NCBI GenBank assembly: GCA_041690595.1
Contig: JAWLHB010000019.1
Coordinates: 12,335-76,334, forward strand
Source of the DNA: Lentisphaeria bacterium
Lineage (GTDB): Bacteria > Verrucomicrobiota > Lentisphaeria > JABSQK01 > JAWLHB01
Reading direction: 5' to 3'
DNA: 64,000 bases
Every line of letters starts with the position of its first letter. Within the stretch, counting starts at the first letter, position 1. The notes under the pieces were generated by a model. It did not search any database. It saw only the letters and a program-made list of their open reading frames with translations, and was not told the DNA's origin. A program made the position numbers and the translations under genes. Shown here one piece after another: positions 1 to 18,615 of this stretch.

Positions 1-1011
1 CTGGTTGCGCGCCCGGGGGGCGTCGGGCCGGGTCATTTCGATCAGCCCGGCGGCCAGCGCCGGTTGGAGGTAGGAATAGAGGAAGGTCGGGCGGTGCGAA
101 AGACCAAGCTTCTCCATGATTTGCCTGGCGGAGAGAGGCGTCGCGTCCATCACGGCAAGAAGGCGGACAACTTGTTCGGTTTGTTGTTCGGTTACTTGTT
201 CGGTGGCGATGAGTTCCAGCAGGGCATCACGGATCATGGAGAGCATGAACTCGACGAAGGGATTGCACACGACCGCCTTGTTGCTGGCGTTCAGGGCGGC
301 GTAGTAGTCGGCCTGATGTTCGCCGGTGAGCGTCTCGACGGAGACGGCGGCAAACAGGGGATTCCAGCGGCTCAGGATGAGCGTCTGCCAGAGGCGGCCC
401 ATGCGGCCGTTGCCGTCTTGAAAGGGGTGGATGAACTCGAACTCGTAGTGAAAGACGCAACTGGCGATGAGTGGGTGCTCGGGGGTGGTTCTCAGCCACG
501 CCAGGAGATCAGCGACCAGAGCGGGTACGCGGTCGGCGGGGGGGGCAAGGTGGACGATTTCTTCTCCGCGCTGGATGCCCACACTGCCGGAGCGGAAGTG
601 GCCGGGTTCATCGATCAGCCCGGCCATGAGTATGCGGTGCGCTGCCAGCAGGTCGTCGCGGGAATGGTGCGACCACTCAGGCATGTGTTCATAGGCGACG
701 AAGGCGTTGCGAACCTCTTGAATCTCGCGGGGCGTACCAAGCACACGCTTGCCGTCCAGTACCGCGGTGACCTGTTCGACGCTGAGGGAATTCCCCTCGA
801 TGGCGCAGGAGGCCTGAACGGAACGGATGCGGTTGCCGCGCCGCAGGTGAGGCGCAACAGGACCGCTCGCGGCCCGCAATCGGCCCAGCGCTTCGCCAAT
901 CTCCTCGACCACGCAGAGCATGGCCGGGGTCAGACGGTAGGGCGGCGAATAATCTGAAGAGAGGATGGGGCTATCTCCCGACTTTCGCTTGTTGTGCTTG
1001 CTGGGCTTCAT
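1..1011 (-). CDS. Fic family protein (Fic/DOC AMPylation fold); the C-terminal winged-helix part continues past the left edge of the window
   Basis: The reverse-strand translation reads MKPSKHNKRKSGDSPILSSDYSPPYRLTPAMLCVVEEIGEALGRL... and contains the canonical Fic motif HPFQDGNGR (revcomp of about 403-438). The N-terminal YxPPY...L..ei..lg segment resembles a Fic_N region. There is no stop before position 1, which is why the gene is absent from the ORF track, which reports only ORFs closed by a stop. The start ATG lies at about 1011-1009. Confidence 0.75.
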   Translation of the reverse strand, partial: MKPSKHNKRKSGDSPILSSDYSPPYRLTPAMLCVVEEIGEALGRLRAASGPVAPHLRRGNRIRSVQASCAIEGNSLSVEQVTAVLDGKRVLGTPREIQEVRNAFVAYEHMPEWSHHSRDDLLAAHRILMAGLIDEPGHFRSGSVGIQRGEEIVHLAPPADRVPALVADLLAWLRTTPEHPLIASCVFHYEFEFIHPFQDGNGRMGRLWQTLILSRWNPLFAAVSVETLTGEHQADYYAALNASNKAVVCNPFVEFMLSMIRDALLELIATEQVTEQQTEQVVRLLAVMDATPLSARQIMEKLGLSHRPTFLYSYLQPALAAGLIEMTRPDAPRARNQ

Positions 1012-1035
1012 GAGCTAATCATGAGTTTCCTGGCG

Positions 1036-1050
1036 ATGCACGTTGTGCAT
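1036..1050. promoter_or_regulatory. perfect palindrome ATGCAC-GTT-GTGCAT between the partner gene and fic; candidate operator or internal promoter element
   Basis: Direct reading of 1031-1050 (tggcgatgcacgttgtgcat). The palindrome sits in the 83-bp gap upstream of the fic start. Confidence 0.3.
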
Positions 1051-1094
1051 GTAAAAGGAGCCGATATACCCGTTCCTGTGTGGAAGTGAGAATC

Positions 1095-1661
1095 TCAACC
1101 ATCCGCATTGGAGAGATGGATAGGAGAGGATGAGATGCAGTCCACCAAGGCGTGTTTTCTGGCAAGTTCATCGTTCATGACGATCACCGCGGGAACTGAC
1201 ATAGCCCAAGCTTTTACGGTTGGATGCAGCGATTTCTTCAATGCATCCTGAAGCGGTGGCAACCACGAATCTCGGTGCCCATTAATGATGAGAACAAGGC
1301 GAAAGTCGATTGCCGACAAATCGAGGCTACGATACGGCTCGGGCAACTCAGGGTATGTTTCTGGGTGCCGTTTCAGGACAGCCGCAAGCCCGAGTGATAA
1401 GGCGTTGCACAGCTTGTCTCGGATCTCCTCGATGAAACCATCGAAGCTTGGCTGTGTCTCCGGGCGTGGGCTGCTCGACTTCGCTTCGACAATCCAGATA
1501 CAGGGCGACTTCCCCATCTCTTGACGCAGAAGTAAAAACTCTGCAATCTGTACACCCTCCTGCACGTGCCTGTACGTCTCACTCGTCTCAATATGGAAGC
1601 AGAGAGGCGAAAGGTACGGCCCGAAGCTCATGTTCGACTCGGTGAAGCTGGTGGTCGTCAT
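1095..1661 (-). CDS. hypothetical 188-aa protein, partner of the upstream AAA ATPase (possibly a DUF4276/RloB-like Toprim-like or nuclease-like effector)
   Basis: The ATG overlaps the ATPase stop in an ATGA arrangement (tcATGAcg), indicating translational coupling. It carries acidic motifs HIETSET and IWIVEAK, and no signal peptide. Its 188-aa size and genomic context match the small partner proteins of split OLD/AbiL/PARIS-type ATPase systems. No family assignment can be made by eye. Confidence 0.55.
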   Translation of the reverse strand: MTTTSFTESNMSFGPYLSPLCFHIETSETYRHVQEGVQIAEFLLLRQEMGKSPCIWIVEAKSSSPRPETQPSFDGFIEEIRDKLCNALSLGLAAVLKRHPETYPELPEPYRSLDLSAIDFRLVLIINGHRDSWLPPLQDALKKSLHPTVKAWAMSVPAVIVMNDELARKHALVDCISSSPIHLSNADG

Positions 1662-2671
1662 GACAACGCCACCTCCACCTCCTCCTTGTAGAGCCTGATG
1701 GACTCGTCGATAATAGGGTTGTCAGGCATTCCCTCCTTCAGGTCCGCGCAGATCCATCCGCATTCTCCGGTGCACAAGAGCGGAACCGACATTTGCTTCT
1801 CCAACGCGAGCAAGTACAGCTTCTTGACCACGAAGTAGGAGTGGCTGGCCATGACGAATTGCACGCCCCGCCCCGCGAGTAAGGCGATGATGTCGAGAAG
1901 CTTCGAGATGGCCGTCGGATGCAGCGCCGCCTCCGGTTCATCGATGAAGACCACCGAACCGGTGTCGAGGTAGCGGTTGCCCAGCAAGGTGTCCAGAATG
2001 GCGATCTTCTTGATTCCTTCGGCTGTTGTCCCGATGGGGTACTTCTGGTTGCCCCTGCGAAATGTCCACCGAACGGCCGTTTCGTCGTACTCCACTCTAC
2101 CGCCAAGAATCTCTTCAAGCTTCTGACGAGACTGGGCAAACTCCGTGTAGTTCTTGCCCTTCTGGAGGGGCTGACGGAGCGCGCGGGCCAAGTCGAGATA
2201 GGTGTCATCGAAGCCGAACACCTTGTCCTGTTCGCGTGAGCGAAGGATGAGATGATGCAGGGAAAGCACCTCCTTGGCTGGCAGGAAGATGGAATTGCTC
2301 GACCGGGACGACACATGGTTCTCCAGCGTGGCGATTTGCTTGGTTGTGTCTTTCCCGAAGCTGAAGCGGAACTCCTGCTTGTCGAACTCCATGGCAAACG
2401 ACAGCGGCTCATCGGCCCCCTTGGTCACCAGATCGCCGATACGCTCAGGTTGAAATGTCCAGTAGAGTTTGTCCGCCAGTATCTCAGCCGCCAAGCGCTT
2501 GTCGTCCCCCCGCCGGTATTCCTCAAGTGTGCGCATGGCTGAGTAGAGGGCCTTCAGCAGAAAGGTCTTTCCGCTCGCATTGGCACCGATGATCAGGTTG
2601 ATCGGGCCAAGGCATGGCCACCCAACCTGGGTTAACGGGCCGAAGTTCTTCATTTCAAGTTTTGTTATCAT
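1658..2671 (-). CDS. AAA family ATPase, ABC/AAA_21 (AbiEii/OLD-like) type
   Basis: The N-terminus reads MITKLEMKNFGPL...LIIGANASGKTFLLKALY (Walker A). The C-terminus reads SVVFIDEPEAALHP...VMASHS (Walker B plus a signature-like H-loop). The start was moved from the tracker's TTG at 2764 to the ATG at 2671, which is preceded by GGAG (caggagaagcagaATG). Confidence 0.8.
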   Translation of the reverse strand: MITKLEMKNFGPLTQVGWPCLGPINLIIGANASGKTFLLKALYSAMRTLEEYRRGDDKRLAAEILADKLYWTFQPERIGDLVTKGADEPLSFAMEFDKQEFRFSFGKDTTKQIATLENHVSSRSSNSIFLPAKEVLSLHHLILRSREQDKVFGFDDTYLDLARALRQPLQKGKNYTEFAQSRQKLEEILGGRVEYDETAVRWTFRRGNQKYPIGTTAEGIKKIAILDTLLGNRYLDTGSVVFIDEPEAALHPTAISKLLDIIALLAGRGVQFVMASHSYFVVKKLYLLALEKQMSVPLLCTGECGWICADLKEGMPDNPIIDESIRLYKEEVEVALS

Positions 2672-3058
2672 TCTGCTTCTCCTGCAGACAAGTTCTTGGG
2701 GCCTGCCATATCGGTAACAATCGTTTCGACGGCCATGCGGACACGAGCGCGGTCGCCCGATCAATTCCAGTACGTACGGCGGGCTATGCTGGGGGTCCAG
2801 ATAATATTAGTTGTATCCAGATGGTGTCAAACTGCAAATGCTGAAGTATCGGGCTATACCGTGGGGCAAGGGGACGGTGGATTGGGCAGCGTCGAATCGA
2901 ATGGGAAAGTGCCTGTCTCTGGTTGAGGGTGGTGGTGCTTCTTGATAGGATGAGCGGGGACGAAGATGAGTGGAGGGCTTTTATGGCGGGTGGAGGTGGA
3001 GTAGATTAAGCGGGCGAGCGTGTGAGTGGATCTTTCTCAATGGAGGCGATATCTCAGG

Positions 3059-3502
3059 ATGATACAGATAACGAAGGTGGTGGAGTGGGACATGGGACAC
3101 CGTGTGCCAAACCACAAGAGCAAGTGCCGCAACCTGCACGGGCATCGCTATCGCATGGAACTGACGCTGGCGGGCGACCTGAATCAGCAGTCTGGGGCAA
3201 GCTCGGAAGGCATGGTGCTCGATTTCAGTGACGTGAAGCGTCACATGATGGAACGGGTGCATGATGTGCTGGATCATTCATTCATGTTTCATGAGGAGGA
3301 CGAGCTGCTGGTCCACCTGTTTGAGGAACACGCGACGGATGGCGGATTCCGTTACATTTCGGTTCCTTTTATCCCGACGGCGGAGAATCTGGCGAAATGG
3401 TGTTTTGACCAGCTCGAGGGCTGCTTTCCGCCGGCCATCCAAATCGTCCGGATTCGCATTTACGAAACGCCAAATTCCTGGGCCGACTATCTGCCCGACT
3501 GA
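3059..3502 (+). CDS. queD: 6-carboxy-5,6,7,8-tetrahydropterin synthase / 6-pyruvoyl-tetrahydropterin synthase family (QueD-like)
   Basis: MIQITKVVEWDMGHRVPNH...C.NLHGHRY.E matches the QueD/PTPS Zn-binding CxxxHGH and HxxxxH pattern. The start is at the ATG downstream of the tracker's GTG, with GGAGG 13 nt upstream. Confidence 0.75.
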   Translation: MIQITKVVEWDMGHRVPNHKSKCRNLHGHRYRMELTLAGDLNQQSGASSEGMVLDFSDVKRHMMERVHDVLDHSFMFHEEDELLVHLFEEHATDGGFRYISVPFIPTAENLAKWCFDQLEGCFPPAIQIVRIRIYETPNSWADYLPD

Positions 3503-3519: not shown

Positions 3520-4374
3520 ATGCTTAGACTTGGCGCTCACATGAGCATTGGCGGCGGCTTCCACAACGCCTTCGATCGCGGCGAGACGACTGGCTGCGAT
3601 ACGATGCAGATCTTCACCAAGAACAATCGTCAATGGAACTCCGCGGCGATCACGGCGGAGCAGGTGGATGCGTGGCTGGAGCGACGGGCGACGAGCAGCA
3701 TCGCGCCGGTCTTCATTCACGGGATCTACCTGATGAACCTGGCATCGCCGACGGATTCCGTGCGGGAGCGCTCGATCGAGGCGCTGGTGGACGAGCTGGA
3801 GCGTGCGCACCTGCTGGAGTTGCCGTGGGTGATCATCCACCCGGGGAGTCATGGCGGCCTTGGCGAAGAGCGGGGCTTGCAGTTGATCACGGAAGGGGTG
3901 CTGCAGACGATCGAGCGGACGAAGACCTCATCGGTGCGGATATGCCTGGAGACGACGGCGGGGATGGGAACGTCGATCGGGTCGAAGTTCGAGCACCTGG
4001 CGGAACTGTATGCGCGCATCGACGCGCCGGAGCGGCTGTGCGTCTGCCTGGATACGTGCCACATTTTCTCGTCGGGGTATGCCTTCGATACGCCCGAGGC
4101 GTACGCGGCGACGATGGGGGAGTTTGACCGGATTGTGGGCATCGACCGACTTGCGTGTCTGCATCTGAATGACAGCAAGACGAAGTTCGGGCTCAACAAG
4201 GACCGGCATGAGCATATCGGCGAGGGGCATATCGGCCTTGAGCCTTTTGGCTATTTTCTGAACGATCCGCGTCTGGCAAAGGTGCCGATGGTGATTGAGA
4301 CGCCAGTGGAGAAGGACGAAGTGGCCGAGGACCGGCGTAACCTGGCGGCCTTGCGCGGCCTGATCAAAGCTTGA
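3520..4374 (+). CDS. nfo: deoxyribonuclease IV (endonuclease IV, AP endonuclease family 2)
   Basis: MLRLGAHMSIGGG... HPGSH ... LETTAG ... LDTCH ... and HLNDSK are typical Nfo/xylose-isomerase-like TIM barrel motifs. The length of 284 aa fits. Confidence 0.9.
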   Translation: MLRLGAHMSIGGGFHNAFDRGETTGCDTMQIFTKNNRQWNSAAITAEQVDAWLERRATSSIAPVFIHGIYLMNLASPTDSVRERSIEALVDELERAHLLELPWVIIHPGSHGGLGEERGLQLITEGVLQTIERTKTSSVRICLETTAGMGTSIGSKFEHLAELYARIDAPERLCVCLDTCHIFSSGYAFDTPEAYAATMGEFDRIVGIDRLACLHLNDSKTKFGLNKDRHEHIGEGHIGLEPFGYFLNDPRLAKVPMVIETPVEKDEVAEDRRNLAALRGLIKA

Positions 4375-4385
4375 ATAGGAGAAAA

Positions 4386-6260
4386 ATGATGAAGAGAATG
4401 CAACTGATGATTCTGACGATGGCGCTGCTGGGGCTTTTGATGATGCCGACCGGGTGCGGCGACGGTGAGAAGAAGGACCAGCCAACGGCGCCGGAGGTGA
4501 GGACGACGGCGGCTGATGCAGGGGAGATGGAGACGTTGGAGGTGGAACTGCCGGAGGGGACTCTCCTTTTTCCGGAGGAAGAGTTCGCGAAGGCGGTGGA
4601 TCCGCTGGCCAGCGCAAGCGCGCTGCGTGGAGGAACGCTGCGGATGTTCATCGGGCCGAACCCGAAGAGCCTGAACTATTACCTGGAGACGAGCACGCTG
4701 GCGGCAACGATTTTTCCGCTGATGTACGAGTCGCTGCTGAGCAGCAACCCGATCACGCTGGATGACGAGCCGGGGCTGGCGCGGAAGTGGGCGGTGTCGC
4801 CGGACAAGATGACCTTCACCTTCTGGATGGATCCGAAGGCCCGGTGGAGCGACGGGAGACCGATTACGGCGCACGATGTGAAGTATACGTTCGACGCGGT
4901 AATGGCGAATCCGAGCACCGGTGTGCATCAGGTCTATCTGGGGCGCTTCAGCGAGGTGAAGCTGCTGGACGACTACACGATTCAGTTCACGGCGGAGAAG
5001 GAGCATTGGAGCAATCTGCAGAGCGCGGGTGGCTTCATGATTCTGCCCAAGCATATCTGGGAGACCCGCAACTTCACGGAGATCAGTTTTGACTTCCCGG
5101 TAGTCAGCGGCTTGTACAGGATCGAGGAGTTTCGGGAGAATCTATCGCTGACGATGTCGCGGCGTGAGGATTACTGGGATCGGGAGTCACCCAACCTGCG
5201 CGGCAAGTACAACTTCGCGACGATCGTCTTCCGTTTTTATGGCGACCGCAAGAATGCGTACGATGAGTTTCTGAACCGCAATATCGATGTTTTTCCGGTG
5301 ACGACCGCGAGCCGATGGGCGGAAGAGGCGCAGGGTGAGCGCTTCGACAAGAACTGGGTGGTGAAGCAGGCGATCTATAACTACAACCCCATCGGCTTCC
5401 AGGGCTTTGCGATGAACATGCGGCGGGAGCCGTTCCGGGATCGGCGGGTGCGCCAGGCGATCGCGCATCTGATCAATCGGCGCAAGATGAACAGCACGCT
5501 GATGTACAATGCGTACTTCATGCTGAGTTCGTATTATCCGGATCTGTATACGCCGGAGATTCCCAATCCGAACCCGCTGTACGAGTTCGACAAGGAGCAG
5601 GCGCGGGCGCTGCTGCGGGAGGCCGGCTGGGTGATCAATCCCCAGACGGGGCTGCTCGAAAAGAATGGGCGCTCCCTGACTTTCGAGATCCTGACCCGCG
5701 ATTCGAGCACGGAACGCTTCCTGGCGATCATGCGGGAAGACTTCAAGGATGTAGGTATCGCCTTCAAGACGGTGCTGAAAGACTGGTCCGCCTGGATGAA
5801 GGACATGGACGACTTTAACTATGACATGACGTGGGCGGCGTGGGGCGCCGGAGTTCTGAAAGATCCGGAAGGCATGTGGAAGAGCAGCGAGGCGGAGCGG
5901 GTTGGCGGCTCGAACATCACGGGCTTCAAGAGCGACAAGGTGGATGAATTGATCGAGGCGCAGCGGACCAATTACGATGTCGGAGAGCGGCATGACATCG
6001 TGCGCCAGATCGACCAGCTGGTCTATGCGGAAGTGCCCTATGCGCTGCTGTGGAATCTGAACTATCAGCGGGTGCTGTACTGGAACAAGTTCGGCACCCC
6101 GCCGCAGGTACTGAGCAAATACGGCGATGCGGATTCGCTGATCGCCTACTGGTGGATCGACCCGGATACCGACGCCGACCTTGACTACGCGATCGAGAGT
6201 GGAGCATCGATGCCGAAGATGCCGTCGGAAGTACATTTCGACGAGGTGTTCAATCCTTGA
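4386..6260 (+). CDS. ABC transporter substrate-binding protein, family 5 (peptide/oligopeptide, YejA/OppA-like) lipoprotein
   Basis: Lipoprotein signal MMKRMQLMILTMALLGLLMMPTGC. The family-5 solute-binding-protein length and motifs are present. AGGAGA precedes the ATG at 4386; the tracker start at 4371 is a TTG. Confidence 0.85.
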   Translation: MMKRMQLMILTMALLGLLMMPTGCGDGEKKDQPTAPEVRTTAADAGEMETLEVELPEGTLLFPEEEFAKAVDPLASASALRGGTLRMFIGPNPKSLNYYLETSTLAATIFPLMYESLLSSNPITLDDEPGLARKWAVSPDKMTFTFWMDPKARWSDGRPITAHDVKYTFDAVMANPSTGVHQVYLGRFSEVKLLDDYTIQFTAEKEHWSNLQSAGGFMILPKHIWETRNFTEISFDFPVVSGLYRIEEFRENLSLTMSRREDYWDRESPNLRGKYNFATIVFRFYGDRKNAYDEFLNRNIDVFPVTTASRWAEEAQGERFDKNWVVKQAIYNYNPIGFQGFAMNMRREPFRDRRVRQAIAHLINRRKMNSTLMYNAYFMLSSYYPDLYTPEIPNPNPLYEFDKEQARALLREAGWVINPQTGLLEKNGRSLTFEILTRDSSTERFLAIMREDFKDVGIAFKTVLKDWSAWMKDMDDFNYDMTWAAWGAGVLKDPEGMWKSSEAERVGGSNITGFKSDKVDELIEAQRTNYDVGERHDIVRQIDQLVYAEVPYALLWNLNYQRVLYWNKFGTPPQVLSKYGDADSLIAYWWIDPDTDADLDYAIESGASMPKMPSEVHFDEVFNP

Positions 6261-6338: not shown

Positions 6339-7364
6339 ATGCAACGCCTGGACTACTTCATCAAACGCCTGCTGCTGATCGTGCCGACCTTCATCGGCAT
6401 CACGCTGGCTGTCTTCATCCTGATCCAGTTCGTTCCCGGTGGTCCGGTGGAGCAGCAGCTCGCGCAGATGCGCGGGGCGGGGAACATCGGTGGGGCGAAT
6501 GTGCAGGCGATTGCGGAGGAGCAGCGGGAGGCCCTGATGAAGGAGTTCGGCTGGGACAAGCCGATCCTGGTCCGCTACTGGGACAACATGGTGGTCAACA
6601 AAGCGGCGCTGACGATGCATTCCATCCAGTACCGCGAACGGACCACCTGGGAGCTGATCCGGAGCCGCTTCAAGGTGTCGCTGATCTTCGGCATCACTGG
6701 CTTCGTCTTGACGTACCTGATCTGCATTCCGCTGGGCATCGCCAAGGCGTTGCGGGACGGGGGGGCTTTCGACATTGCCAGCAGCATCGTCGTCTTCACG
6801 GGTTATGCGATACCCGCCTTTGCCTTCGGGATGCTGCTCAAGATGTTCTTCACGGGGACGGTGGAAGGCTTCTGGGACTTCTTCCCGGTGGCTGGCTTCA
6901 CCTCGCCACACTATGCGGAGTTGAGCGCGTTGGGAAAGGTCAAGGACATCGCGTGGCACATGTTTCTGCCGGTGCTCTGCTACATGGTCGGCAACTTTGC
7001 GGTGCTGACGCTGTTGATGAAGAATTCGCTGCTGGAGCAGATTGGCAAGGACTATATCCGGACGGTGCTGGCAAAGGGTGGCTCATCGCGTCGGGCCATC
7101 TGGGGGCATGCGCTGCGGAACTCGATGATTCCGATTGTGACGGGCATTGGTGGCATCATGACGGTGATGTTCGCCGGATCGGTGCTGATCGAAAAGGTTT
7201 TCGAGATCCCGGGCATGGGGCTTCTTAGCCTGGAGGTGATCGTAAACCGCGACTATCCAACTTTCATGGCGATACTTTCTCTCACCTCCATCCTTGGCCT
7301 CATCGGCAATATCGTGTCCGACATGGCTTATGTGCTGATTGACCCGCGTATCAATTTCGAATGA
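6339..7364 (+). CDS. ABC transporter permease (OppB/YejB-like)
   Basis: MQRLDYFIKRLLLIVPTFIGITLAVF, multiple TM segments and the EAA-like region are characteristic of OppB-type permeases. Confidence 0.85.
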   Translation: MQRLDYFIKRLLLIVPTFIGITLAVFILIQFVPGGPVEQQLAQMRGAGNIGGANVQAIAEEQREALMKEFGWDKPILVRYWDNMVVNKAALTMHSIQYRERTTWELIRSRFKVSLIFGITGFVLTYLICIPLGIAKALRDGGAFDIASSIVVFTGYAIPAFAFGMLLKMFFTGTVEGFWDFFPVAGFTSPHYAELSALGKVKDIAWHMFLPVLCYMVGNFAVLTLLMKNSLLEQIGKDYIRTVLAKGGSSRRAIWGHALRNSMIPIVTGIGGIMTVMFAGSVLIEKVFEIPGMGLLSLEVIVNRDYPTFMAILSLTSILGLIGNIVSDMAYVLIDPRINFE

Positions 7365-8983
7365 AGCTTCCCCGGATCTTCAAACTCAATCCGATCACCC
7401 ACAAGCGATTGCGCCGTTTTCGGCAGCGGAAGCGCGCGTACTGGTCGTTCTGGCTGATCCTGGTCATCTATGGGTTGAGCCTGGTGGCGGAGTTGTGGGT
7501 CAACAGCGTGCCGCTCTATGTGCGATACGAGGGGGTCTCCTATTTTCCGGCGCTCAAGTCGCTCTTCGGCGGAGTCTATTCGGAGGATATCTTCACCGGT
7601 AGCGGGCTGGCGTCGCGGACGGATTACAAGATGCTGGAGCAGATGCCGCGGTTTGGTTCCACGCCGGGCAACTTCATGATCTGGCCAGTCGTGCGGAGCG
7701 GTCCGCACGAGATCTTTACGGACGAGAAGCTGCGGCTGCCCGAGGAGGTGACGGTGATGCTCACGCCGGCAACGCAAGTGGGACGGGTCAACATCGACCA
7801 GGTTGACAAGGTGGTGCGGGCGCTGAATGCGGAATGGTTCTTCAGGGCAGATACGGCAGCGGAGGTGATCGGCGAGACCTTTACCGAGCATTGGCCGTTG
7901 CCGGGCGCGATTCGGCAGGGGCTCCAGAAACGGTTCAGCAACCAGCCCGCGGAGGCAGTCAGTCACGTGGTCGCCAATGATGCGGGCCAGGAAATCGAAC
8001 TGCAATTGTCTCCTTATGCGCCGCGCATGGAGCCGCCGGAGTCGGTGCGCATCACGCTGCGCGAAGTGGCCGATTCGCAGTTGACGGAGCGGTTGGTATT
8101 TGATGGAGATGGGGAGATTATCGAGGGTGAGTCGGGGACGCGGTGGCAGGCGGCGAGCGACGATCAGCGTAAGACGATCCGGGAGGCAGTGGCCAAACGT
8201 GCCGACGGCATGCTGATCGGGGATATGAGCATCTTCATCAACGGGGTCAACCTGCGGGTCGACTTCCAGAAGGAAGACTTTCGGGTCCCCTTCCGGCCGG
8301 TTCGGGGGCATTGGCTGGGTATCGACCATTCGGGGCGGGATGTTTTCGCGCGCCTGGTTTACGGGTTGCGCATCGCCATGAGTTTCGGCTTGCTGCTGGT
8401 GATTCTGACGATGATCATCGGGGTGGCGATCGGGGCAGTACAGGGCTACTATGGCGGGCTGCTTGACATCAGCGCGCAGCGGCTGATCGAGATCTGGAGC
8501 GCGATACCCTTCCTTTACGTGATGATCCTGCTGGGTTCGATCTATGGGCAGAGCTTCATGCTGCTGCTCGGGGTCTACGGCGTCTTTCACTGGATCGGGA
8601 TCTCGTACTACATGCGAGCAGAGTTCCTCAAACTGCGGAAGGAGCCTTTCGTGGAAGCCGCGCGATGCATGGGCATCCCGACATGGAAGATCCTCTTCAA
8701 GCATATACTGCCGAACGGGCTGGTGCCGATCATCACCTTCTTTCCCTTCTCGCTCGTGGGGGCGATCGGCGTGCTGACCGCACTGGACTATCTTGGCTTC
8801 GGGCTGCCGCCGGGAACGCCAAGCTGGGGTGAGCTGCTGGCGCAGGCGCAGGACTACAGCTACGCGTGGTGGCTGGTTCTCTATCCTTTTCTCATCCTCT
8901 TCATCACCATTCTGCTCTGCGTCTTTGTCGGTGAGGGCGTACGCGCCGCCTTCGATCCGCGCCGCTACTCACGCATGCAATAA
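7361..8983 (+). CDS. ABC transporter permease (OppC/YejE-like, long periplasmic N-terminal extension)
   Basis: ATGA overlap with the upstream permease. The C-terminal TM bundle resembles OppC, with a 300-aa N-terminal extension as in YejE. Confidence 0.85.
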   Translation: MKLPRIFKLNPITHKRLRRFRQRKRAYWSFWLILVIYGLSLVAELWVNSVPLYVRYEGVSYFPALKSLFGGVYSEDIFTGSGLASRTDYKMLEQMPRFGSTPGNFMIWPVVRSGPHEIFTDEKLRLPEEVTVMLTPATQVGRVNIDQVDKVVRALNAEWFFRADTAAEVIGETFTEHWPLPGAIRQGLQKRFSNQPAEAVSHVVANDAGQEIELQLSPYAPRMEPPESVRITLREVADSQLTERLVFDGDGEIIEGESGTRWQAASDDQRKTIREAVAKRADGMLIGDMSIFINGVNLRVDFQKEDFRVPFRPVRGHWLGIDHSGRDVFARLVYGLRIAMSFGLLLVILTMIIGVAIGAVQGYYGGLLDISAQRLIEIWSAIPFLYVMILLGSIYGQSFMLLLGVYGVFHWIGISYYMRAEFLKLRKEPFVEAARCMGIPTWKILFKHILPNGLVPIITFFPFSLVGAIGVLTALDYLGFGLPPGTPSWGELLAQAQDYSYAWWLVLYPFLILFITILLCVFVGEGVRAAFDPRRYSRMQ

Positions 8984-8992
8984 GGAGCTCTC

Positions 8993-9988
8993 ATGCCCGA
9001 CCTGATTACCATCGATGATCTGCGTGTCTCCTTCGTACTGGACGAAGGGGTGGTGCGGGCGGTGGATGGCGTCTCCTTTGCCATCCGCCAGGGAGAGGTG
9101 CTGGGGCTGGTGGGGGAATCCGGCTGCGGGAAATCGGTGACGGCGATGAGCATGCTGCGCCTCATCCCCCAGCCGCCGGGGCGCATCGACGGCGGCAAGG
9201 TCATGTTTGGGGGCCGAAACCTCCTCGAGCTGCCGCTGGACGAGCTGCGCAAGATCCGGGGCAACGACATCAGCGTCATCTTCCAGGAGCCGATGACGGC
9301 CCTTTCGCCGCTGCACCGGATCGGCCGGCAACTGGTGGAGACGTTGCGCATTCATCAGCCGGATCTGAGCAAGAAGGAAGCGTGGCAACAGAGCGCCGAC
9401 TGGCTGCGGAAGGTGGGCATTTCGGATGTGACGGATCGCCTCTACGCCTATCCGTTTCAGTTCTCCGGGGGCATGCGGCAGCGCGTGATGATCGCCATGT
9501 CGATGATGCTGCGCCCGAAACTCATCATCGCCGATGAGCCGACGACGGCACTGGACGTGACGATTCAGGCCCAGATCTTCGAGCTGATGCTGGAGATGAA
9601 GGCCGACGACATGAGCCTGCTGCTGATTACCCACGACATGGGGGTGATCTGGGAGATGTGCGACCGGGTGATCGTCATGTACGCCAGTCAGATCGTGGAG
9701 CAGGGCAGGGTGAAGGAGATCTTCGAGTCGCCGCGCCATCCGTATGCGGAGGGGCTGCTGGCGGCGGTGCCGCGCCTGACGGGCAGCGCCGGCAAGCGTC
9801 TGTCGACGATTCCGGGGCAGGTGCCGTCGGCCATGAACTATCCACCGAACGCGTGCCGCTTCTGTGACCGCTGCCCCTACGTCTTCGATCGCTGCCGGAA
9901 GGAGGCGCCTCCGCTGTATCATCTGCCGGATGGCCGTCGCGCCCGCTGCTTCCTCCGCGAGAAGGATGCCATCACCCCACCGGAATGA
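8993..9988 (+). CDS. ABC transporter ATP-binding protein (OppD/DppD-like, single ATPase with oligopeptide C-terminal domain)
   Basis: Walker A GESGCGKS, signature FSGGMRQR and Walker B LIIADEPT are present. The C-terminal CRFCDRCP segment matches the oligopeptide ATPase C-terminal domain. AAGGAG precedes the ATG. Confidence 0.85.
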   Translation: MPDLITIDDLRVSFVLDEGVVRAVDGVSFAIRQGEVLGLVGESGCGKSVTAMSMLRLIPQPPGRIDGGKVMFGGRNLLELPLDELRKIRGNDISVIFQEPMTALSPLHRIGRQLVETLRIHQPDLSKKEAWQQSADWLRKVGISDVTDRLYAYPFQFSGGMRQRVMIAMSMMLRPKLIIADEPTTALDVTIQAQIFELMLEMKADDMSLLLITHDMGVIWEMCDRVIVMYASQIVEQGRVKEIFESPRHPYAEGLLAAVPRLTGSAGKRLSTIPGQVPSAMNYPPNACRFCDRCPYVFDRCRKEAPPLYHLPDGRRARCFLREKDAITPPE

Positions 9989-10024
9989 GGGGAGGCAGCC
10001 CTGCCGACCCCGGGCAGATAAGGA

Positions 10025-12541
10025 CTACTGCGTCAACGCGGCCTTCGCCTCAAGGATAAGCGCGGCAATCTGCCGCCGCCTTGCTTCGAGCAGGTTCGGA
10101 TCCTTGGTCCAATCGAAGACTGAGGAGATGATCTCCGGCTCCAGGACCAGCGCGGTTTGCAGGCGATGACGGAGGTCAGTATGGGATGGCTGCTTCAGCT
10201 GGCCGAGCAGGTCAGCGAGGAGGGCCAAATACTCGTAGTCTTCAAGACCTTTCCGCACATTGGCCAGACGCATGCCGGGAATAATCGTGAAGTCTGGGCC
10301 GGGGTAGATCAGGGTGCCACTCCCTTTCTCCTTGCCATCGGACCATGTGGAGGCGGGCCAGCGCGCCGCTGGTTCTTTGCCGGTATTGGCATCGGGAACG
10401 GCATTGAGCATGAAGATATAGAAGCCGTCGAGCTGGTATTTCCACGCCATCCATGCGTGGATGCGCAGGGCGATGTAGGGGCGATGGTACAGGCTGAATG
10501 GCGAGTAGTGGTCCTCGGTATGGCGGGTGGTGTGGGAGACGCTCCCATCTGGATTCTCGCGGAACTCGATGCAACTGTACGCCCATAGCTTTTCGCCATG
10601 TTTCTCACGCCGTTCCAGCATGGCCGCCATGACCTCAGGGCGATCGAGCTGTTCGAGATGGGGAGCCCACCCATCGATCATGCCGAGCGCATTCTGGCCA
10701 TTGACTTCCTGGGTCGGGTACTGACCGAAATTGAGCAGTTGCAGATCCGGCACCAGCTCCCGGAAGAAGCGGTGGTGGCGTAACATCTCCAGGTAGCGTT
10801 CTCCGCCCGGTTCATCGAACAGCTCATACCAGGCATTCTCATTGATGCCAAGCTCCTTGAGGTGGGCAACATAGGCGATCAGGAAGTCCCGATAGAGGCG
10901 GTTTTCCCGGTATGGCATCTTCTCCAGCGGTACCCAACCTTCGCTCAGTGACGGGAGACAATCCGCCAATGGCATCTGCTTACCGCTTGCCCGGTCGATG
11001 ACGGTGGTCTTTGGGTTATGCAGGTATCGGGTCCAGCCGGAGTTACAGCTCAAGGCGCTCCAGAAGGCGGTGGTGCCGTTCGCCAGAGCGTTCCTTACAT
11101 ATTGATCATAGGTGTTCCAGTCGAAGCTGAAGCTGCCATCGGCTTCAGCGTAGATGGTCACCTGCCTGCAGAGGGTGATCCAGTCGCATGGGAAAGAACT
11201 GATGCGGTATCGGCCAAGGAGCGCGGCATGTTGCGCATGCAGCTCGGGGGTATAATCCATACGTCCATAGAACTTGCGCCAGTTGCTGGGCGTCCACCAG
11301 AATTCATTGGCGATGGAACTGGTCCTGGGGATGTCAAAGCCGTATGACTGGACGGTGATGGGGAGCGTGATCGACTGACCGTTGGCGGTCACCGTGACGC
11401 CGCCGTTGAAGAGGCCCGCGGGTGTGCCGCCTGGGAGCAGGAGATCGACCCATACCGCGGCCAGGTTGCCTGCCTGAACGGCAAATGGCGCTGCCGGCAG
11501 GAGGGGATCGGGTTCCTGGGCATGGCTGTAGTTGAGCGCGAGCCAGGGTTGGGGATCCTCAAGGGTTACATGGCCTACCCGAAACCACTTACAGTTGGCA
11601 GTCGGGATTGTCACGTCACCTGGCCCGCGCAGCTCCGAGAAGGTCACCTCGACTTCGGTGAGATCGGTCCAGAATGGAATGACGGCCAACTGAAAGGAGC
11701 CATACTCATTGCCCGCAAGAGCGAGGGCTATGGGCGTTTCGGGCTGCCCCTCGTACAGGGTGTCAGGATAGAGTTTGTCGCTTTCACTGGCAACTCCCAG
11801 CGTGTAGGAGCGGACAGGTTCGCCGCTGCGTGCCGGATAAAGGCGCGCCAGATGCAGGTCGCGGCGCAAAGCCTGTGGATCTGCATCGGGCTGAAGCAGG
11901 CGTTGGACGATGGCCGCGAAGTGGGGGTGGTTGTTAGTGGCCAGCAACGGCCGGGCGGCGATCCGTTCCTCTTCGGTTAGTGGTGCCGCCGCTGGGCCTG
12001 CATCCTGCTGGTCGGGAGGGGGCGCCAGTGCGAAGCTCACATCTCGCACCCACATGGTGCCTTCGGCCACGGCATCCGGCCGATGGATGCAGTATGGGCC
12101 GACGATGACGGTGGCAAAGGCGGCATTGGCGGGAGCGGTGACGATCCTGCTGAATGGCACGAACTCCGCATCATAGCCACCATCGATCGCCATGGTATAG
12201 TCGATGCCCCGCTGCTCTTTGTCCCTCCACTGGATGGCCATCTTGAAGTAGAATGAGGCGAGCTGTACCCGCTTCCAGCACTGAAGCTCATACTGCTCCC
12301 CGCTCGTCACGGGAATTGTTTGGGTCAACTGATGAGCTTGCGCACCGTCGGTAAAGCGGACCGCATCCTGATCCCGACTCAGCTCTCCCTCGCGCAGGGC
12401 ATGATCCCAGGGTCGCCAGTGGGCGGGTAACGGAGAGTCGGCCGGCCAGTCGGCGAACGTACCGTTCTTCAGCAGATTATCGCCCAGGACGTTGGCGGCA
12501 CAGCAAATGCTGAGGAGGAAGGGAAGGATGGGCCTAAACAT
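10025..12541 (-). CDS. secreted putative glycoside hydrolase (N-terminal CBM4/9-like beta-sandwich; DUF4091/GH123-like catalytic region suspected)
   Basis: Signal peptide MFRPILPFLLSICCAANVLG. NLLKNGTFADWP...W is a CBM-like start. The tracker start was moved by 67 codons to the first Met followed by a hydrophobic signal. It lies 17 bp downstream of the DUF4838 gene in the same operon. Confidence 0.45.
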   Translation of the reverse strand: MFRPILPFLLSICCAANVLGDNLLKNGTFADWPADSPLPAHWRPWDHALREGELSRDQDAVRFTDGAQAHQLTQTIPVTSGEQYELQCWKRVQLASFYFKMAIQWRDKEQRGIDYTMAIDGGYDAEFVPFSRIVTAPANAAFATVIVGPYCIHRPDAVAEGTMWVRDVSFALAPPPDQQDAGPAAAPLTEEERIAARPLLATNNHPHFAAIVQRLLQPDADPQALRRDLHLARLYPARSGEPVRSYTLGVASESDKLYPDTLYEGQPETPIALALAGNEYGSFQLAVIPFWTDLTEVEVTFSELRGPGDVTIPTANCKWFRVGHVTLEDPQPWLALNYSHAQEPDPLLPAAPFAVQAGNLAAVWVDLLLPGGTPAGLFNGGVTVTANGQSITLPITVQSYGFDIPRTSSIANEFWWTPSNWRKFYGRMDYTPELHAQHAALLGRYRISSFPCDWITLCRQVTIYAEADGSFSFDWNTYDQYVRNALANGTTAFWSALSCNSGWTRYLHNPKTTVIDRASGKQMPLADCLPSLSEGWVPLEKMPYRENRLYRDFLIAYVAHLKELGINENAWYELFDEPGGERYLEMLRHHRFFRELVPDLQLLNFGQYPTQEVNGQNALGMIDGWAPHLEQLDRPEVMAAMLERREKHGEKLWAYSCIEFRENPDGSVSHTTRHTEDHYSPFSLYHRPYIALRIHAWMAWKYQLDGFYIFMLNAVPDANTGKEPAARWPASTWSDGKEKGSGTLIYPGPDFTIIPGMRLANVRKGLEDYEYLALLADLLGQLKQPSHTDLRHRLQTALVLEPEIISSVFDWTKDPNLLEARRRQIAALILEAKAALTQ

Positions 12542-12558
12542 GGTCTGCTCCTTTATGT

Positions 12559-15261
12559 TCACTGGCCGAAAACGAGCCAACCGCGGGAGTCCGGCTCCTT
12601 GTGGGCGGCCGGCGAGGGAAACCATGTACGGCCGCTGAAGCCGCCGCTGCCGAGATTGCGTACAAGGTTGATCCGCAGGTAGCGATGGTCGGTCGGCAGA
12701 AGCCCGAGCTGCCGCAGGTCGATCTTGAGTTCCGCCTGCCATGCGTCCGCGTCCTCCGTAATGGCATGGGCGGCCATTGCCTGGGGCGCGTCACCGATAC
12801 TGCCGCCACCACTCTCCATGAAACCGCCGCCGAAAGCGGGTATTGCCTGATAGTACGCGAGCTTGTCTCGCTCCACTCCGGGTTGGTCGGCATTGAGGAA
12901 GAGTTCGATGCTGGGGTACTGGAAGGCGCGGCTGCCATCCTTTGGCAGGCAGCGCGGCTGGGCCGCCAGGTCCGCCTGTGGGCAGCGCACCGCGACATAG
13001 AGGAAACGATCATCGTGGGCGAAAGCCATCGACGTCCTGGTATGTGGATCCTCGACGGCACTCTGCCAGTTGAACCATGGGTGCTGCTCTACCCATTGCC
13101 AGATCGGTTCATCGAAGTTGCCGTCGATGGTCGGCGGGTTCTGCGTGCGCGGTGCCATAACGATGCGCGACGCCATGGCGCGGAGGCTTTGCAGGCGTCG
13201 CTGTTGTGCCTCGGTGCGGGATACTCCCGGCGGGACCACCGCCATCAACGCCTGTTGTGCGGCAGCGATCAACTGCTCTTGATCCGCGACTCCTTCCGCC
13301 AGCAGGTCGGCAATGCGTTTGCCGGCCGTCTCCAACACGATCTTGCGCACAGCCAGGCCGCAGCCGTCAAGCAGGATGGTGGGTCCATGAAACCTGGTGT
13401 GGTCCGCGGCCATCATCCGCTGGGTGAACTCGAGCACGTCAACGGGGTCGAGGTTGTCTTCACCTTCCAGAAGGGCGGCCATCAGCTCCGCCGGTCCGGC
13501 GCCATTCCACTGCCGCTCATTCAGGCCGGTGTACGCATGATAGGTCTTCGATGCGTACTCGGTGAGCTTGAAGGTGGAGGCAAAGTACTCGATACGTTGC
13601 CGCACGATGTCCTGGGTTGCCATGGCGCGGGCCTCACTGAGAAGCTGCTGGCAGTGGGCGACGTCCTCTGGTGGAAAAAGCAGCAGTTGGCAGGACTTCT
13701 GCCACAAGCCGAACTTGTTCTGCAGGTCGAGTGGTTCAGCCTTGCCTTTCCACGGAATATACTGGGTGATGCCCGACAGGCGCCCGGCATTGTTGACGCG
13801 CATCCGCTCCAGCGTCTGAAAGTAGCGGATCATGGGCGCGGCGGCTTCCTCGAAGACTGCTTCGCACCACCGGCGGGTAAGGGCATCGACGTCGGCTTCG
13901 GGATTCCACAACAGCTTCTCCAAAATCCAGACCTTCGGTCCATCCATACCCCAGCTGGCATTGATCTCGCCGAAGAAGGCGACCTGGCCACTCCGCGACT
14001 TCCCGGCGACATGCCGAAGATAATCGGCCATATCGTGCGAGTAGAGCATGGGAATGGCGAGGCTGGCACCATAGAAGTACTCGTACACGCCGATCTGATC
14101 GACGCGATCCAGCCAGGCGTCGGTAATCTCGAGGTAGGTGCGGCGGACTTCGGGGTCGAACCAGGTGGAGCGGGTGGCGCAGAGAAAGGGCATGATGTTG
14201 CGCTCCACCGCAATGTCACGTGGAGGCAAGTCGCATCTGGCATAACCGAGCGTGGTGATGATCCTGCCAGGATGGCTCTGCTGGATGGCTACGGCAACCT
14301 GATTGAGGAAGCTGTACCAGCGCTGACTCTTGCTGCTGTCGACCGTGCAGCCGGCAATCGCGATGGCGGGCCCGTCGAGCGCCTGGCATTCGGGGCATTC
14401 GCAGAAACCGCCATCGGTCATACCCAGGCTGAACGACTCTGCCTGTGGATGCTGGTCGAAGTACTGCCGGACTTTGGCGATAATGATGGTAACCACCTCG
14501 GGATTGGCGATGCAGGGCGCCTGTTCGTGCCCGGAATCGGTGATCTTGCGCTTGCCGTCGACCATGGGGAAGTATTCTGGATGTGTCTGGCCGAACTCCT
14601 TCACCGGGATCAGGGTCTGGATGGTGTGCGAGGCCTCGAAACGGCGTTGCTGCATGGGCGTGCGCCACGGGATGGTTCCCGCGCACCAGCCGCGGCCTGC
14701 CTTACCTTCGGCGTTGAAGGCCCAGAAGCCGCGGTTCTTGTAGACAGGCGATTCCAAGCGTGTTTCCACCGGAATGCGTACCGTCGCATGCTTCGGCACC
14801 ACGAGTCCCAAGCGGTGCGGAAAATAGGCGTCCACGCCAAGATACTCGCGCAGAAAATCGTACTGAGCCCACGCGGTCGTCTCCGCGGTGGCTCCGACCA
14901 GTACCACAAAGGTGGGGTACACGGCGACGATGTAGTCGTCGATGCTCATCGTTCGCAGACGCTCTCCGAACAGCTGTTCCGCACGACTGGTGCGCCCAAC
15001 GAAGATCGCGTAGGGCATGGTTGTCTCATCGTAATCCTTCTCCGCGACGCTCTCCAGTCGCCGGCCCGTGGACTGCTCGACATACGCCTGCAGCAGATTC
15101 TTTGGCCCCTCGTACGGCCAACCGGGAGTGAGCACATCGCCGACGATGACGGCCGCGATTTCCCCATCCACCAACGGAAAAGTCTCCGCGGCGTGAACGC
15201 CCGCCGCCAACACCAGCGCCAACGCCATCATCCTCATTCTTTTTCCGCCACCGGTCTTCAT
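12559..15261 (-). CDS. DUF4838-family secreted protein with C-terminal CBM9-like domain
   Basis: Signal peptide MKTGGGKRMRMMALALVLAAGVHA. The GT..AxYxFLE..LGV.xYFP, HPEYF, C.ANPEV and CxCxxC blocks are shared with the paralog at 32734..35145. The C-terminal PTIDGNFDEPIWQ...FLYVAVRCPQADL segment is CBM9-like. Confidence 0.55.
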   Translation of the reverse strand: MKTGGGKRMRMMALALVLAAGVHAAETFPLVDGEIAAVIVGDVLTPGWPYEGPKNLLQAYVEQSTGRRLESVAEKDYDETTMPYAIFVGRTSRAEQLFGERLRTMSIDDYIVAVYPTFVVLVGATAETTAWAQYDFLREYLGVDAYFPHRLGLVVPKHATVRIPVETRLESPVYKNRGFWAFNAEGKAGRGWCAGTIPWRTPMQQRRFEASHTIQTLIPVKEFGQTHPEYFPMVDGKRKITDSGHEQAPCIANPEVVTIIIAKVRQYFDQHPQAESFSLGMTDGGFCECPECQALDGPAIAIAGCTVDSSKSQRWYSFLNQVAVAIQQSHPGRIITTLGYARCDLPPRDIAVERNIMPFLCATRSTWFDPEVRRTYLEITDAWLDRVDQIGVYEYFYGASLAIPMLYSHDMADYLRHVAGKSRSGQVAFFGEINASWGMDGPKVWILEKLLWNPEADVDALTRRWCEAVFEEAAAPMIRYFQTLERMRVNNAGRLSGITQYIPWKGKAEPLDLQNKFGLWQKSCQLLLFPPEDVAHCQQLLSEARAMATQDIVRQRIEYFASTFKLTEYASKTYHAYTGLNERQWNGAGPAELMAALLEGEDNLDPVDVLEFTQRMMAADHTRFHGPTILLDGCGLAVRKIVLETAGKRIADLLAEGVADQEQLIAAAQQALMAVVPPGVSRTEAQQRRLQSLRAMASRIVMAPRTQNPPTIDGNFDEPIWQWVEQHPWFNWQSAVEDPHTRTSMAFAHDDRFLYVAVRCPQADLAAQPRCLPKDGSRAFQYPSIELFLNADQPGVERDKLAYYQAIPAFGGGFMESGGGSIGDAPQAMAAHAITEDADAWQAELKIDLRQLGLLPTDHRYLRINLVRNLGSGGFSGRTWFPSPAAHKEPDSRGWLVFGQ

Positions 15262-15288
15262 GCCATGCACCTCCGTTGGTTGTAGCCG

Positions 15289-15930
15289 TCAGTTCACTTT
15301 CAGTATCGTAGCTGGCCGCAGATTGATGAGGGTGCCGGCATGCCCGTCGGCATACCCCAGCGTATGCCGCACTCCCCCATGGTGGGGCGACGGGAAGAGG
15401 TAGGGGCTGCCGACCGCGGCTTGGTTGTCCACCCAATAACCAGGCCAAGTACTGCCCATGGTGGTGCTGGCATCGAGCACGAGCACATTCGCGTCCGCCT
15501 GCCGCAGCCCGGGAAGCTTGTGCAGCGCAGTCCCGAGTCCGCCCAATACCGTGCGATTGGCCACGTAGTTGAGCTGCCCACCATAACTATTGGCGTTAGC
15601 TGGGCACCAGAAGCTGCTCCGTTTGCCGTACTTCGGCCCCAGATACGGCAGCAGCGCTCCACTGTTGCCTGGCCAGGCGACAAACCAGACCGGCGGACCA
15701 AAGACCGGCGGCAGGAAATCGTCATTTTCGTCAGCGTAGGTCAGCATGGCGAGGCTCACCTGCTTCAGGTTGTTCAGGCAGGTGGTGCCGCGCGCCGCAT
15801 CCCGCGCCTTGCTCAGCGCCGGGAGCAGCATCGACGCCAGAATCGAAATGATCGCCACAACGACCAGCAGCTCGATGAGCGTGAACAGATAGCGGTGAGA
15901 TCTTACCGGGCCGCGGAACTGGGGCTGCAT
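15289..15930 (-). CDS. DUF1559 prepilin-type N-terminal cleavage/methylation domain protein (H-X9-DG family)
   Basis: [27 protein letters not shown] is a pseudopilin N-terminus. The C-terminal [15 protein letters not shown] is the H-X9-DG signature. AGGAGA precedes the ATG. Confidence 0.8.
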
Positions 15931-16113
15931 GGTTTTCTCCTGTGCCTTTTCGTGAATGCTTTCGCTGCCGAAGGTAATGCAATCCTTCCATTAGATCGTT
16001 ACAACACTACAGAATACAGTTGCTTTGGCGATTATCCAAACCGTCTGCAAGAAAAAAAATCCGCCTCGCTTGTCATTGGCGATGCTCGCTGGCCTGGGAA
16101 ATAAAATTCTCTC

Positions 16114-16141
16114 TTGTAGAAAGAGAAAATGTATGTATATT
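16114..16141 (+). promoter_or_regulatory. AT-rich putative promoter (TTGTAG-N16-TATATT) directly abutting the ATG of the DUF4143 ATPase, with an imperfect inverted repeat TTCTCTCTTgtagAAAGAGAAA
   Basis: The only AT-rich patch in this region (16100-16148) is 'gaaataaaattctctcttgtagaaagagaaaatgtatgtatattatcttttATG'. The -10 element ends about 8 nt before the start codon, so the mRNA may be leaderless. Confidence 0.3.
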
Positions 16142-16148
16142 ATCTTTT

Positions 16149-17480
16149 ATGGAAAGTGAATTCAAAGGAACTATACGGTCCAAGGTTATCGATGGACTGG
16201 GGATGGCCATCCCGGACTATACCCGGAGGGATGTGCATCTGCCCGGCGTGCGCGGGAAGGCCATGGCCGTGATCGGGATGCGCCGGAGCGGCAAGACCAC
16301 CTTCATGTGGCAGTGCCTGGCCGATAGATTGAGTGCCGGAACTGACCGCGAAGCTCTGCTTTTCTTCAACTTCGAAGATGAGCGGCTGGCGGGCATGACG
16401 GCGGCCGATCTTCGGTGGGTGGTCGAAGAATACTTCGCGCTCCACCCGGAGCGGCGAGACCAGGCGGTAGTGACCTTCTTCCTGGACGAAATCCAGGTGG
16501 TGCCGGGATGGGAAGCTTTCGTTCGACGACTGATGGACACGGAGAAGATCGAGCTGTTCATCTCGGGCTCTTCGGCCCGCCTGCTAAGCCGTGAAGTGGC
16601 CACCAGCATGCGTGGCCGGGCGATGGAAGTGCTGGTGCACCCATTCTCGTTCCGCGAAATGTTGCGCCACGTTCAGGCCGAACCCGACAGACCTTTGTCC
16701 CAGGTGGGGAAGGCGGGGCGCTCGGTCATCGAGAAGCACTTCCGCACTTACCTGGCCGAGGGAGGGTTCCCCGAAGCCCAGGGGCTGGCCCCCCGCGACC
16801 GCACGGCACTGCTTCGCACCTACGTTGATGTGGCCATCCTGCGGGACGTGATCGATCGACATGGGGTGACCAACACCGCCGCCCTTCGCTGGTTGCTTCG
16901 CCACCTGCTTGGCAATCCGGCCTCGACGTTCAGCGTGGAGAAGTTCCACCTTGCACTGAAATCGCAGGGGCTGGCTGTCGGGAAGAACACCCTCCATGAA
17001 TACCTTGCCCATCTCGAGGATGCATTTCTGGTGCGCACTGTCTCCCTGCACACCGCTTCCGAGCGGCAACGGATGGTCAACCCGCGCAAGGCATATCCGG
17101 TCGATCCAGGGCTTATACCGATCTACGAGCGTGCGGGTCGCGCGAATCTGGGGCGTGCCCTGGAAACGGTCGTGCTGCTCGAACTGGAGCGGCGAGGATG
17201 TGAGATTGGCTACGTACGAACGAGCGAAGGCTACGAGGTGGATTTCCATGCCCGCGATCCCGATGGCCACGTGTGGCTGATCCAGGTATCTGCCGAGATC
17301 CGTGATCCGACAACCTGGCAACGCGAAATCCGGGCCCTGGCCAGCGCGGCGGAAGCCTACCCTGATGCAACTCCTCTTCTCCTGACAGCTGACAGCCAAC
17401 CGCCGACTGAGGCGTTGGCGCCGCGCTTCGTGTGGCAATCCGCCGCCTCCTGGCTGCTGGGAGAAGCGGTAATGGCCTGA
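16149..17480 (+). CDS. ATP-binding protein, AAA superfamily (AAA_14 + DUF4143 type)
   Basis: Walker A AVIGMRRSGKTTFM and Walker B VTFFLDEIQ are present. The C-terminal region is typical of DUF4143 orphan ATPases. The start was moved to MESEFKG. Confidence 0.75.
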   Translation: MESEFKGTIRSKVIDGLGMAIPDYTRRDVHLPGVRGKAMAVIGMRRSGKTTFMWQCLADRLSAGTDREALLFFNFEDERLAGMTAADLRWVVEEYFALHPERRDQAVVTFFLDEIQVVPGWEAFVRRLMDTEKIELFISGSSARLLSREVATSMRGRAMEVLVHPFSFREMLRHVQAEPDRPLSQVGKAGRSVIEKHFRTYLAEGGFPEAQGLAPRDRTALLRTYVDVAILRDVIDRHGVTNTAALRWLLRHLLGNPASTFSVEKFHLALKSQGLAVGKNTLHEYLAHLEDAFLVRTVSLHTASERQRMVNPRKAYPVDPGLIPIYERAGRANLGRALETVVLLELERRGCEIGYVRTSEGYEVDFHARDPDGHVWLIQVSAEIRDPTTWQREIRALASAAEAYPDATPLLLTADSQPPTEALAPRFVWQSAASWLLGEAVMA

Positions 17481-17492
17481 CAATGACGCGCG

Positions 17493-18593: not shown

Positions 18594-18615
18594 GGATCTG
18601 CCTGCGGTCGTTGAG

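Follow-up and report, generated by a model that had tools for sequence, protein, structure and literature searches.

A HEC-02-type ATPase-nuclease gene pair beside a probably independent class II Fic gene in a Lentisphaeria bacterium

The DNA considered here, called the window throughout, is a stretch of 64,000 nucleotides (nt) from a Lentisphaeria bacterium (GenBank assembly GCA_041690595.1, contig JAWLHB010000019.1, positions 12,335 to 76,334). At its left edge, three co-directional genes occupy positions 1 to 2671 of the minus strand, in the transcription order ATPase, small partner, and Fic. The ATPase and its partner most probably form a two-gene HEC-02 (Hma-embedded candidate 02) anti-phage cassette, with the Fic gene as an independent neighbor and not a component of HEC-02; we put the probability of this reading at roughly 85%. 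A first-pass annotation had treated the three genes as one cassette of low guanine-plus-cytosine (GC) content and had proposed an undescribed system with Fic as its effector. Its account of the layout was accurate: the open reading frame (ORF) coordinates agree with three co-directional minus-strand genes at the window edge, and the ATGA overlap, the 83-bp gap, and the motifs GANASGKT, VVFIDEPEAALHP, and HPFQDGNGRMGR are all present as quoted. Each of the three is a real gene with strong homologs. The trio as a new system is another matter, and the evidence for separating Fic from the pair is given below.

Identity of the gene pair

The ATPase gene (positions 1658 to 2671, minus strand) encodes an ATP-binding cassette (ABC)-type protein of 337 amino acids. 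Its Walker A motif, GANASGKT, spans residues 29 to 36 (K35), the Walker B/D-loop segment VVFIDEPEAALHP begins at residue 240 (D244, E245), and the H-loop is present as SH at residues 276 and 277 (H277). The start was placed at the ATG at 2671 and not at a TTG at 2764 because the homologs all align from residue 1, and AGGAG lies just 5' of that ATG. The best PADLOC match was the HEC-02A model PDLC04214, with an E value of 6.9e-160 (530 bits) over residues 1 to 336 of 337 and model positions 1 to 337 of 338. Two further HEC-02 models matched more weakly (PDLC04213, 1.2e-60; PDLC04146, 3.2e-44), and Pfam returned AAA_21 (E value of 1e-24) and AAA_15 only.

The partner gene (positions 1095 to 1661, minus strand) encodes 188 amino acids, and its ATG overlaps the TGA of the ATPase gene by 4 nt as ATGA. 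The protein matched the PADLOC HEC-02B model PDLC04221 over its full length (E value of 2.3e-64), and in PADLOC only HEC-02B models matched it; there was no match in Pfam and nothing meaningful in NCBIfam. The hidden Markov model check against Pfam and PADLOC that the first-pass annotation had proposed gave a defense-type match for both the ATPase and the 188-residue protein. In an alignment of 37 homologs, E41, E59, and A60 are invariant and K61 is conserved in at least 90%, and an AlphaFold model made from that alignment (predicted local distance difference test score of 88.4) has a restriction-endonuclease fold. We predict that the partner is a NERD-like PD-(D/E)xK nuclease, the presumptive effector of the pair, with E41, E59, and K61 as putative catalytic residues. 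No relatives of the nuclease were found on IMG/VR viral contigs.

HEC-02 was discovered embedded in Hma systems and consists of an ABC ATPase and a NERD-like PD-(D/E)xK protein with a (D/E/Q)xK motif; in Escherichia coli it lowered the number of coliphage plaques, and both genes were needed (Payne et al., bioRxiv 10.1101/2024.01.29.577857). The tested system is that of Dickeya dianthicola NCPPB 3534 (WP_024108366.1 and WP_024108365.1). The window pair has a HEC-02A-type ATPase with intact Walker A, Walker B, and H-loop, a NERD-like PD-(D/E)xK partner with a (D/E/Q)xK motif, and the adjacent, co-directional arrangement with the ATGA overlap. Judged on sequence, it is a HEC-02 family member by the PADLOC definition. 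The pair is, then, a member of an already catalogued system type that has been validated experimentally in one distant representative. Phage defense by the PDLC04214/PDLC04221 subfamily, this copy included, would be extrapolated from that representative.

The first-pass annotation had recognized a split ATPase-plus-effector anti-phage pair, which the HEC-02A and HEC-02B matches bear out, but it had likened the pair to PARIS, AbiL, or AAA_21+DUF4276 systems. A system of that kind, with a TOPRIM/OLD-type partner, would agree with the AAA_21 and AAA_15 matches of the ATPase and with its secondary PADLOC matches to AriA (6.5e-25), AbiLi (7e-16), PD-T4-4_A, and NsnB. Each of these PADLOC matches, however, falls short of the HEC-02A match by over 100 orders of magnitude. 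The partner tells against it as well, since neither Pfam nor NCBIfam gave a DUF4435, DUF4276, RloB, or TOPRIM match, PADLOC offered HEC-02B models alone, and the predicted fold is PD-(D/E)xK and not TOPRIM. We find this alternative scarcely credible, and the likeness is better replaced by HEC-02 with a PD-(D/E)xK effector. Taken singly, PARIS (AriA/AriB) was rejected on the AriB-type TOPRIM (DUF4435) effector, which the partner is not, and AbiL and AAA_21+DUF4276 were rejected on a partner with no DUF4276 or RloB match at an E value of ≤1 and no AbiLii match in PADLOC.

Linkage and boundaries of the cassette

Linkage was observed directly in loci from elsewhere. A scan of species-representative genomes provided 80 HEC-02 loci, with partner relatives of 49 to 62% identity; the linkage counts rest on this 80-locus sample, about 660 homologs having been found. 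Every one of these 80 loci has the ATPase gene immediately 5' of the partner gene, and the start/stop overlap keeps the same geometry. By comparison, the gene adjoining the partner downstream was a Fic gene in 0 of the 76 loci with a called downstream gene. That neighbor was of the HsdR type in 10 or 11 of the 76 and diverse in the remainder, housekeeping genes included, and the upstream neighbors of the pair were equally diverse. Fic-like tblastn matches fell within 10 kb of the pair in 5 of the 80 loci, never adjacent to it. A survey from the other side covered 80 metagenomic loci with Fic relatives of 47 to 85% identity (47 of them with at least 2 kb of upstream sequence), and neither the HEC-02 ATPase nor the partner was found in any of the 80. 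Because no Fic gene adjoins the pair in the first set and no HEC-02 gene occurs in the second, the three genes do not form a conserved unit. The first-pass annotation had itself proposed this neighborhood comparison and had tied its undescribed Fic-effector system to conservation of the trio across genomes, and the proposal fails that comparison.

The boundaries of the cassette lead to the same division. The nearest relative of the pair, from JGI metagenomes, has 86.5% nucleotide identity (91% amino acid identity for the ATPase and 77% for the partner) and lies inside a type I restriction-modification (R-M) operon without Fic. On one side of it are hsdS, Abi_C, DUF6978, and DUF1828/DUF1829, and on the other hsdR followed by GmrSD. 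Nucleotide homology to this relative covers window positions 2687 to 1131 only, which is to say the two genes, and ends inside the partner gene. The nucleotide homology between the window and relatives of its Fic gene likewise stops inside the Fic ORF, and neither queD nor nfo, which flank the pair on its right in the window, was found near close Fic relatives. Both genes of the pair are intact with their catalytic motifs kept, and comparison with the nearest relative indicates purifying selection on each, with ratios of nonsynonymous (dN) to synonymous (dS) substitution rates of 0.12 for the ATPase and 0.19 for the nuclease. With a near-identical cassette in a type I R-M operon of a metagenome and at a queD-Fic site here, the HEC-02 pair is a discrete mobile two-gene unit that moves into varied sites, often type I R-M operons.

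Divergence is uneven within the cassette. Between window positions 1095 to 2671 and positions 3709 to 5258 of locus L081, dS is 0.35 in the ATPase gene but 0.74 in the nuclease gene, which ends in ∼12 codons unrelated between the two. Such unevenness could reflect recombination or an exchange of modules within HEC-02.

It is possible, if on the whole unlikely, that HEC-02 and Fic are independent passengers of a larger defense island or type I R-M locus past the left edge of the window, their adjacency reflecting a shared integration hotspot. Type I R-M genes commonly accompany both families, with matches to hsdM, hsdR, or hsdS in 17 of the 80 HEC-02 loci (L001 to L080) and in 17 of the 80 Fic loci (L086 to L165); among the 43 Fic loci that are 6 kb or longer, 13 have such a match. 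As frequent type I R-M neighbors, the two families may thus owe their adjacency to shared island or hotspot biology, and the Fic subfamily of the window may itself be one more passenger of R-M loci. A concrete case is locus L004, from a metagenome-assembled genome of the Desulfuromonadales, where a full-length Fic with 53% identity to the window Fic stands 5.6 kb from the HEC-02 pair, beyond hsdR, in an R-M island. This is the only one of the 80 HEC-02 loci with a full-length Fic of the window subfamily and the only co-occurrence of the two families. The window itself speaks against an island: Hsd-type genes are found nowhere in its 64 kb, the right flank of the pair is housekeeping in character (queD, nfo, and a peptide ABC transporter), and the GC content of Fic is typical of the host.

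The L004 island (positions 6358 to 19310) comprises hsdM, the HEC-02 pair, and hsdR, and it also encodes two Schlafen/AlbA_2 proteins (one with Fic-like_C), an Mrr/HARE-HTH endonuclease, and RhuM.

The Fic gene and its relation to the pair

The Fic ORF begins at 1011 and is cut at its 3' end by the left window edge (positions 1 to 1011, minus strand), and comparison with relatives would suggest that some 5 to 25 C-terminal residues are missing. Pfam recognized a Fic core (1e-20) and a Fic-like_C winged-helix domain (1e-22), and the protein aligned with PDB entry 4RGL over residues 17 to 336 (E value of 1.5e-123). The active-site motif HPFQDGNGRMGR occupies residues 195 to 206 (H195 to R206) and gives the full HxFxDGNGRxxR pattern, and an inhibitory motif, SCAIEG, is found toward the N terminus at residues 68 to 73 (S68, E72, G73). 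Class II Fic proteins carry the inhibitory helix and the Fic core on one polypeptide. The class motifs reportedly go back to the Fic classification of Engel et al. 2012. The window protein carries both HxFx(D/E)GNGRxxR and an intramolecular (S/T)xxxE(G/N), and by these motifs it is a self-contained, self-inhibited class II Fic AMPylase.

This Fic may be a stand-alone defense or toxin-type gene. SoFic-type proteins have been reported to be single-gene abortive-infection defenses, and a small downstream antitoxin, AS1, has been reported for an E. coli Sofic (PMC12249575). The window Fic matched the PADLOC SoFic model at 1e-40 over positions 24 to 282 of 361, and PDC-S04 models also matched. It was rejected as a SoFic orthologue, given that it scored 52 bits against the NCBIfam SoFic equivalog NF046030, whose cutoff is 550, and matched SoFic in the PDB over the Fic core only (E value of 4e-10). 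Next to Fic relatives, no conserved downstream ORF or antitoxin was seen among the 70 loci with enough flank. The fallback proposal of the first-pass annotation, a toxin-antitoxin module docked beside a defense pair, was therefore half right: a separate module is favored, but it is a single-gene Fic and not a two-gene toxin-antitoxin system.

Several points weigh against reading the pair as a HEC-02 cassette with an independent Fic neighbor. Gene context was read on the right of Fic only, the window ending within the Fic ORF. The 83-nt spacer yielded neither a terminator-like nor a promoter-like call, and with so signal-free a spacer Fic may be co-transcribed with the pair by read-through; such read-through is, by itself, no evidence for functional coupling. 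As to the identity of the pair, the window ATPase is 28% identical to that of the Dickeya system, and the relationship between the window and Dickeya nucleases is at the profile level only (hhalign E value of 4e-4, probability of 35%), as is the match of PDLC04221 to the Dickeya partner (4e-5).

A trio acting as one functional unit in this lineage, with Fic as a second effector or regulator co-transcribed with the pair, would account for three co-directional genes with just 83 nt, free of called signals, between the last two. It would also fit the fact that Fic proteins can be anti-phage effectors (SoFic; PMC12249575), as well as the SoFic and PDC-S04 model matches of this one. Yet such a unit would have to be reconciled with the linkage counts in both surveys, with a nearest relative of the pair that has HsdR downstream and whose homology ends at 1131, with homology to Fic relatives that is limited to the Fic ORF, with a 7.5-point gap in GC content between pair and Fic, with a tested HEC-02 that needs its two genes only, and with an inhibitory helix that Fic supplies for itself. 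We hold it to be very improbable. A lineage-specific variant, in which Fic was recruited here, is read through from the promoter of the pair, and serves as an AMPylating second effector or modulator, would by its nature be invisible to conservation analysis, and we give it a similarly slim chance. An independent Fic beside a two-gene HEC-02 cassette is the reading we prefer.

Base composition and surroundings

The window has a GC content of 62.3%, and the ATPase-partner pair has one of 55.7%; no 1577-nt stretch in the rest of the 64 kb goes under 57.5%. Fic, at 63.2%, is at the window norm and 7.5 points above the pair. With the pair low and Fic host-like, composition splits Fic from the pair and does not unite the trio. 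The pair looks horizontally acquired, on the basis of the lowest GC content in the window and a nearest relative in another genomic context. The lower-GC block of the first-pass annotation, together with the horizontal acquisition that it drew from it, accordingly holds for the pair and not for Fic, whose GC content is typical of the window. Nor was queD a sound GC-rich comparator: the queD-like gene that adjoins the pair (positions 3026 to 3502) has a GC content of 54.7%, versus 62.3% for the window, and a GC content at third codon positions of 0.68. Because this gene is also low in GC, the low-GC stretch runs from ∼1012 to 3500, past the HEC-02 cassette.

The pair (window positions 1095 to 2671) is located between queD and Fic. 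A promoter-like site on the minus strand at 2830 to 2801 (TTGACA, 18-nt spacer, TATTAT; 11 of 12 matches) lies ∼130 nt 5' of the ATPase ATG; this sigma-70-like site, a consensus match only, fits the pair having its own promoter. A search around the pair for insertion signatures found only short, chance-level flanking repeats and no integrase signature. The whole 64-kb window holds zero tRNA genes and zero Rfam families at the gathering threshold.

The spacer between the partner stop and the Fic ATG (positions 1012 to 1094, minus strand) has a GC content of 48%, and its RNA fold was not significant (z score of −1.2). Within it, at 1036 to 1050 and ∼25 nt 5' of the Fic ATG, is a perfect 15-nt palindrome, ATGCACAACGTGCAT, which occurs once in the window against a chance expectation of 0.01 and is not followed by a T-run. 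The palindrome could be a candidate operator.

Proposed mechanism and significance

On the model of the tested HEC-02 and of other ABC-ATPase defense pairs, the ATPase would be a sensor or regulator that keeps the nuclease restrained as long as there is no infection. An infection cue sensed by the ATPase would then release or activate the PD-(D/E)xK nuclease, which would cleave nucleic acid with E41 and E59-x-K61 and stop phage replication. The 4-nt overlap would couple translation of the two proteins. We infer the sensor and effector roles, the substrate of the nuclease, and the activity of this copy from that analogy, and the PDLC04214/PDLC04221 subfamily may differ from the Dickeya system in its trigger or its substrate.

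The locus is one more instance of HEC-02 and has little importance beyond annotation. Its lesson is that a Fic gene beside a defense pair is not to be taken as a new system. What interest remains lies in the mechanism of HEC-02 and in a subfamily far from the sole tested representative found, that of Dickeya.

Comparison with known systems

PARIS, AbiL, and the window pair have in common an ABC/AAA_21-type ATPase with a small nuclease effector encoded directly downstream. In PARIS and AbiL, that effector is of the TOPRIM/OLD type (DUF4435, RloB, DUF4276), whereas the window partner has a predicted PD-(D/E)xK fold.

The window Fic shares the Fic core motif, the inhibitory helix, and the C-terminal winged-helix with PDB entry 4RGL, which its depositors annotated as a Fic protein, and with SoFic. 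SoFic of Shewanella oneidensis is a single-gene anti-phage AMPylase, and a defense role for the window Fic would be drawn by analogy with it. The small downstream gene of E. coli Sofic, AS1, has no conserved counterpart among relatives of the window Fic.

Set beside HEC-02 elsewhere, the window pair differs in its surroundings, as it has no Hma or R-M host operon such as embedded HEC-02 pairs have and sits between queD and Fic. Its best models are PDLC04214 and PDLC04221, and those of the Dickeya pair are PDLC04146 for the ATPase and PDLC04145 for the nuclease. The A and B labels in PADLOC-DB are swapped between PDLC04145/PDLC04146 and PDLC04213 to PDLC04230: the model that best fits the Dickeya ATPase is labeled "HEC-02B" and the one that best fits its nuclease "HEC-02A", and in the later HEC-02 models the ATPase is A and the nuclease B. 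BLASTP of the window partner against the Dickeya nuclease gave no significant match, and the first acidic residue is E41 in the window nuclease and D in that of Dickeya. In the profile alignment of the two nucleases, WLIEVK of the window protein falls over WIVEAK of the Dickeya protein. Relatives of the window pair, like HEC-02 in general, are often embedded in modification-based defense operons, and the window and Dickeya systems share the same plan, an ABC-type ATPase of ∼340 amino acids followed by a PD-(D/E)xK protein of ∼170 to 190 amino acids with an ExK motif.

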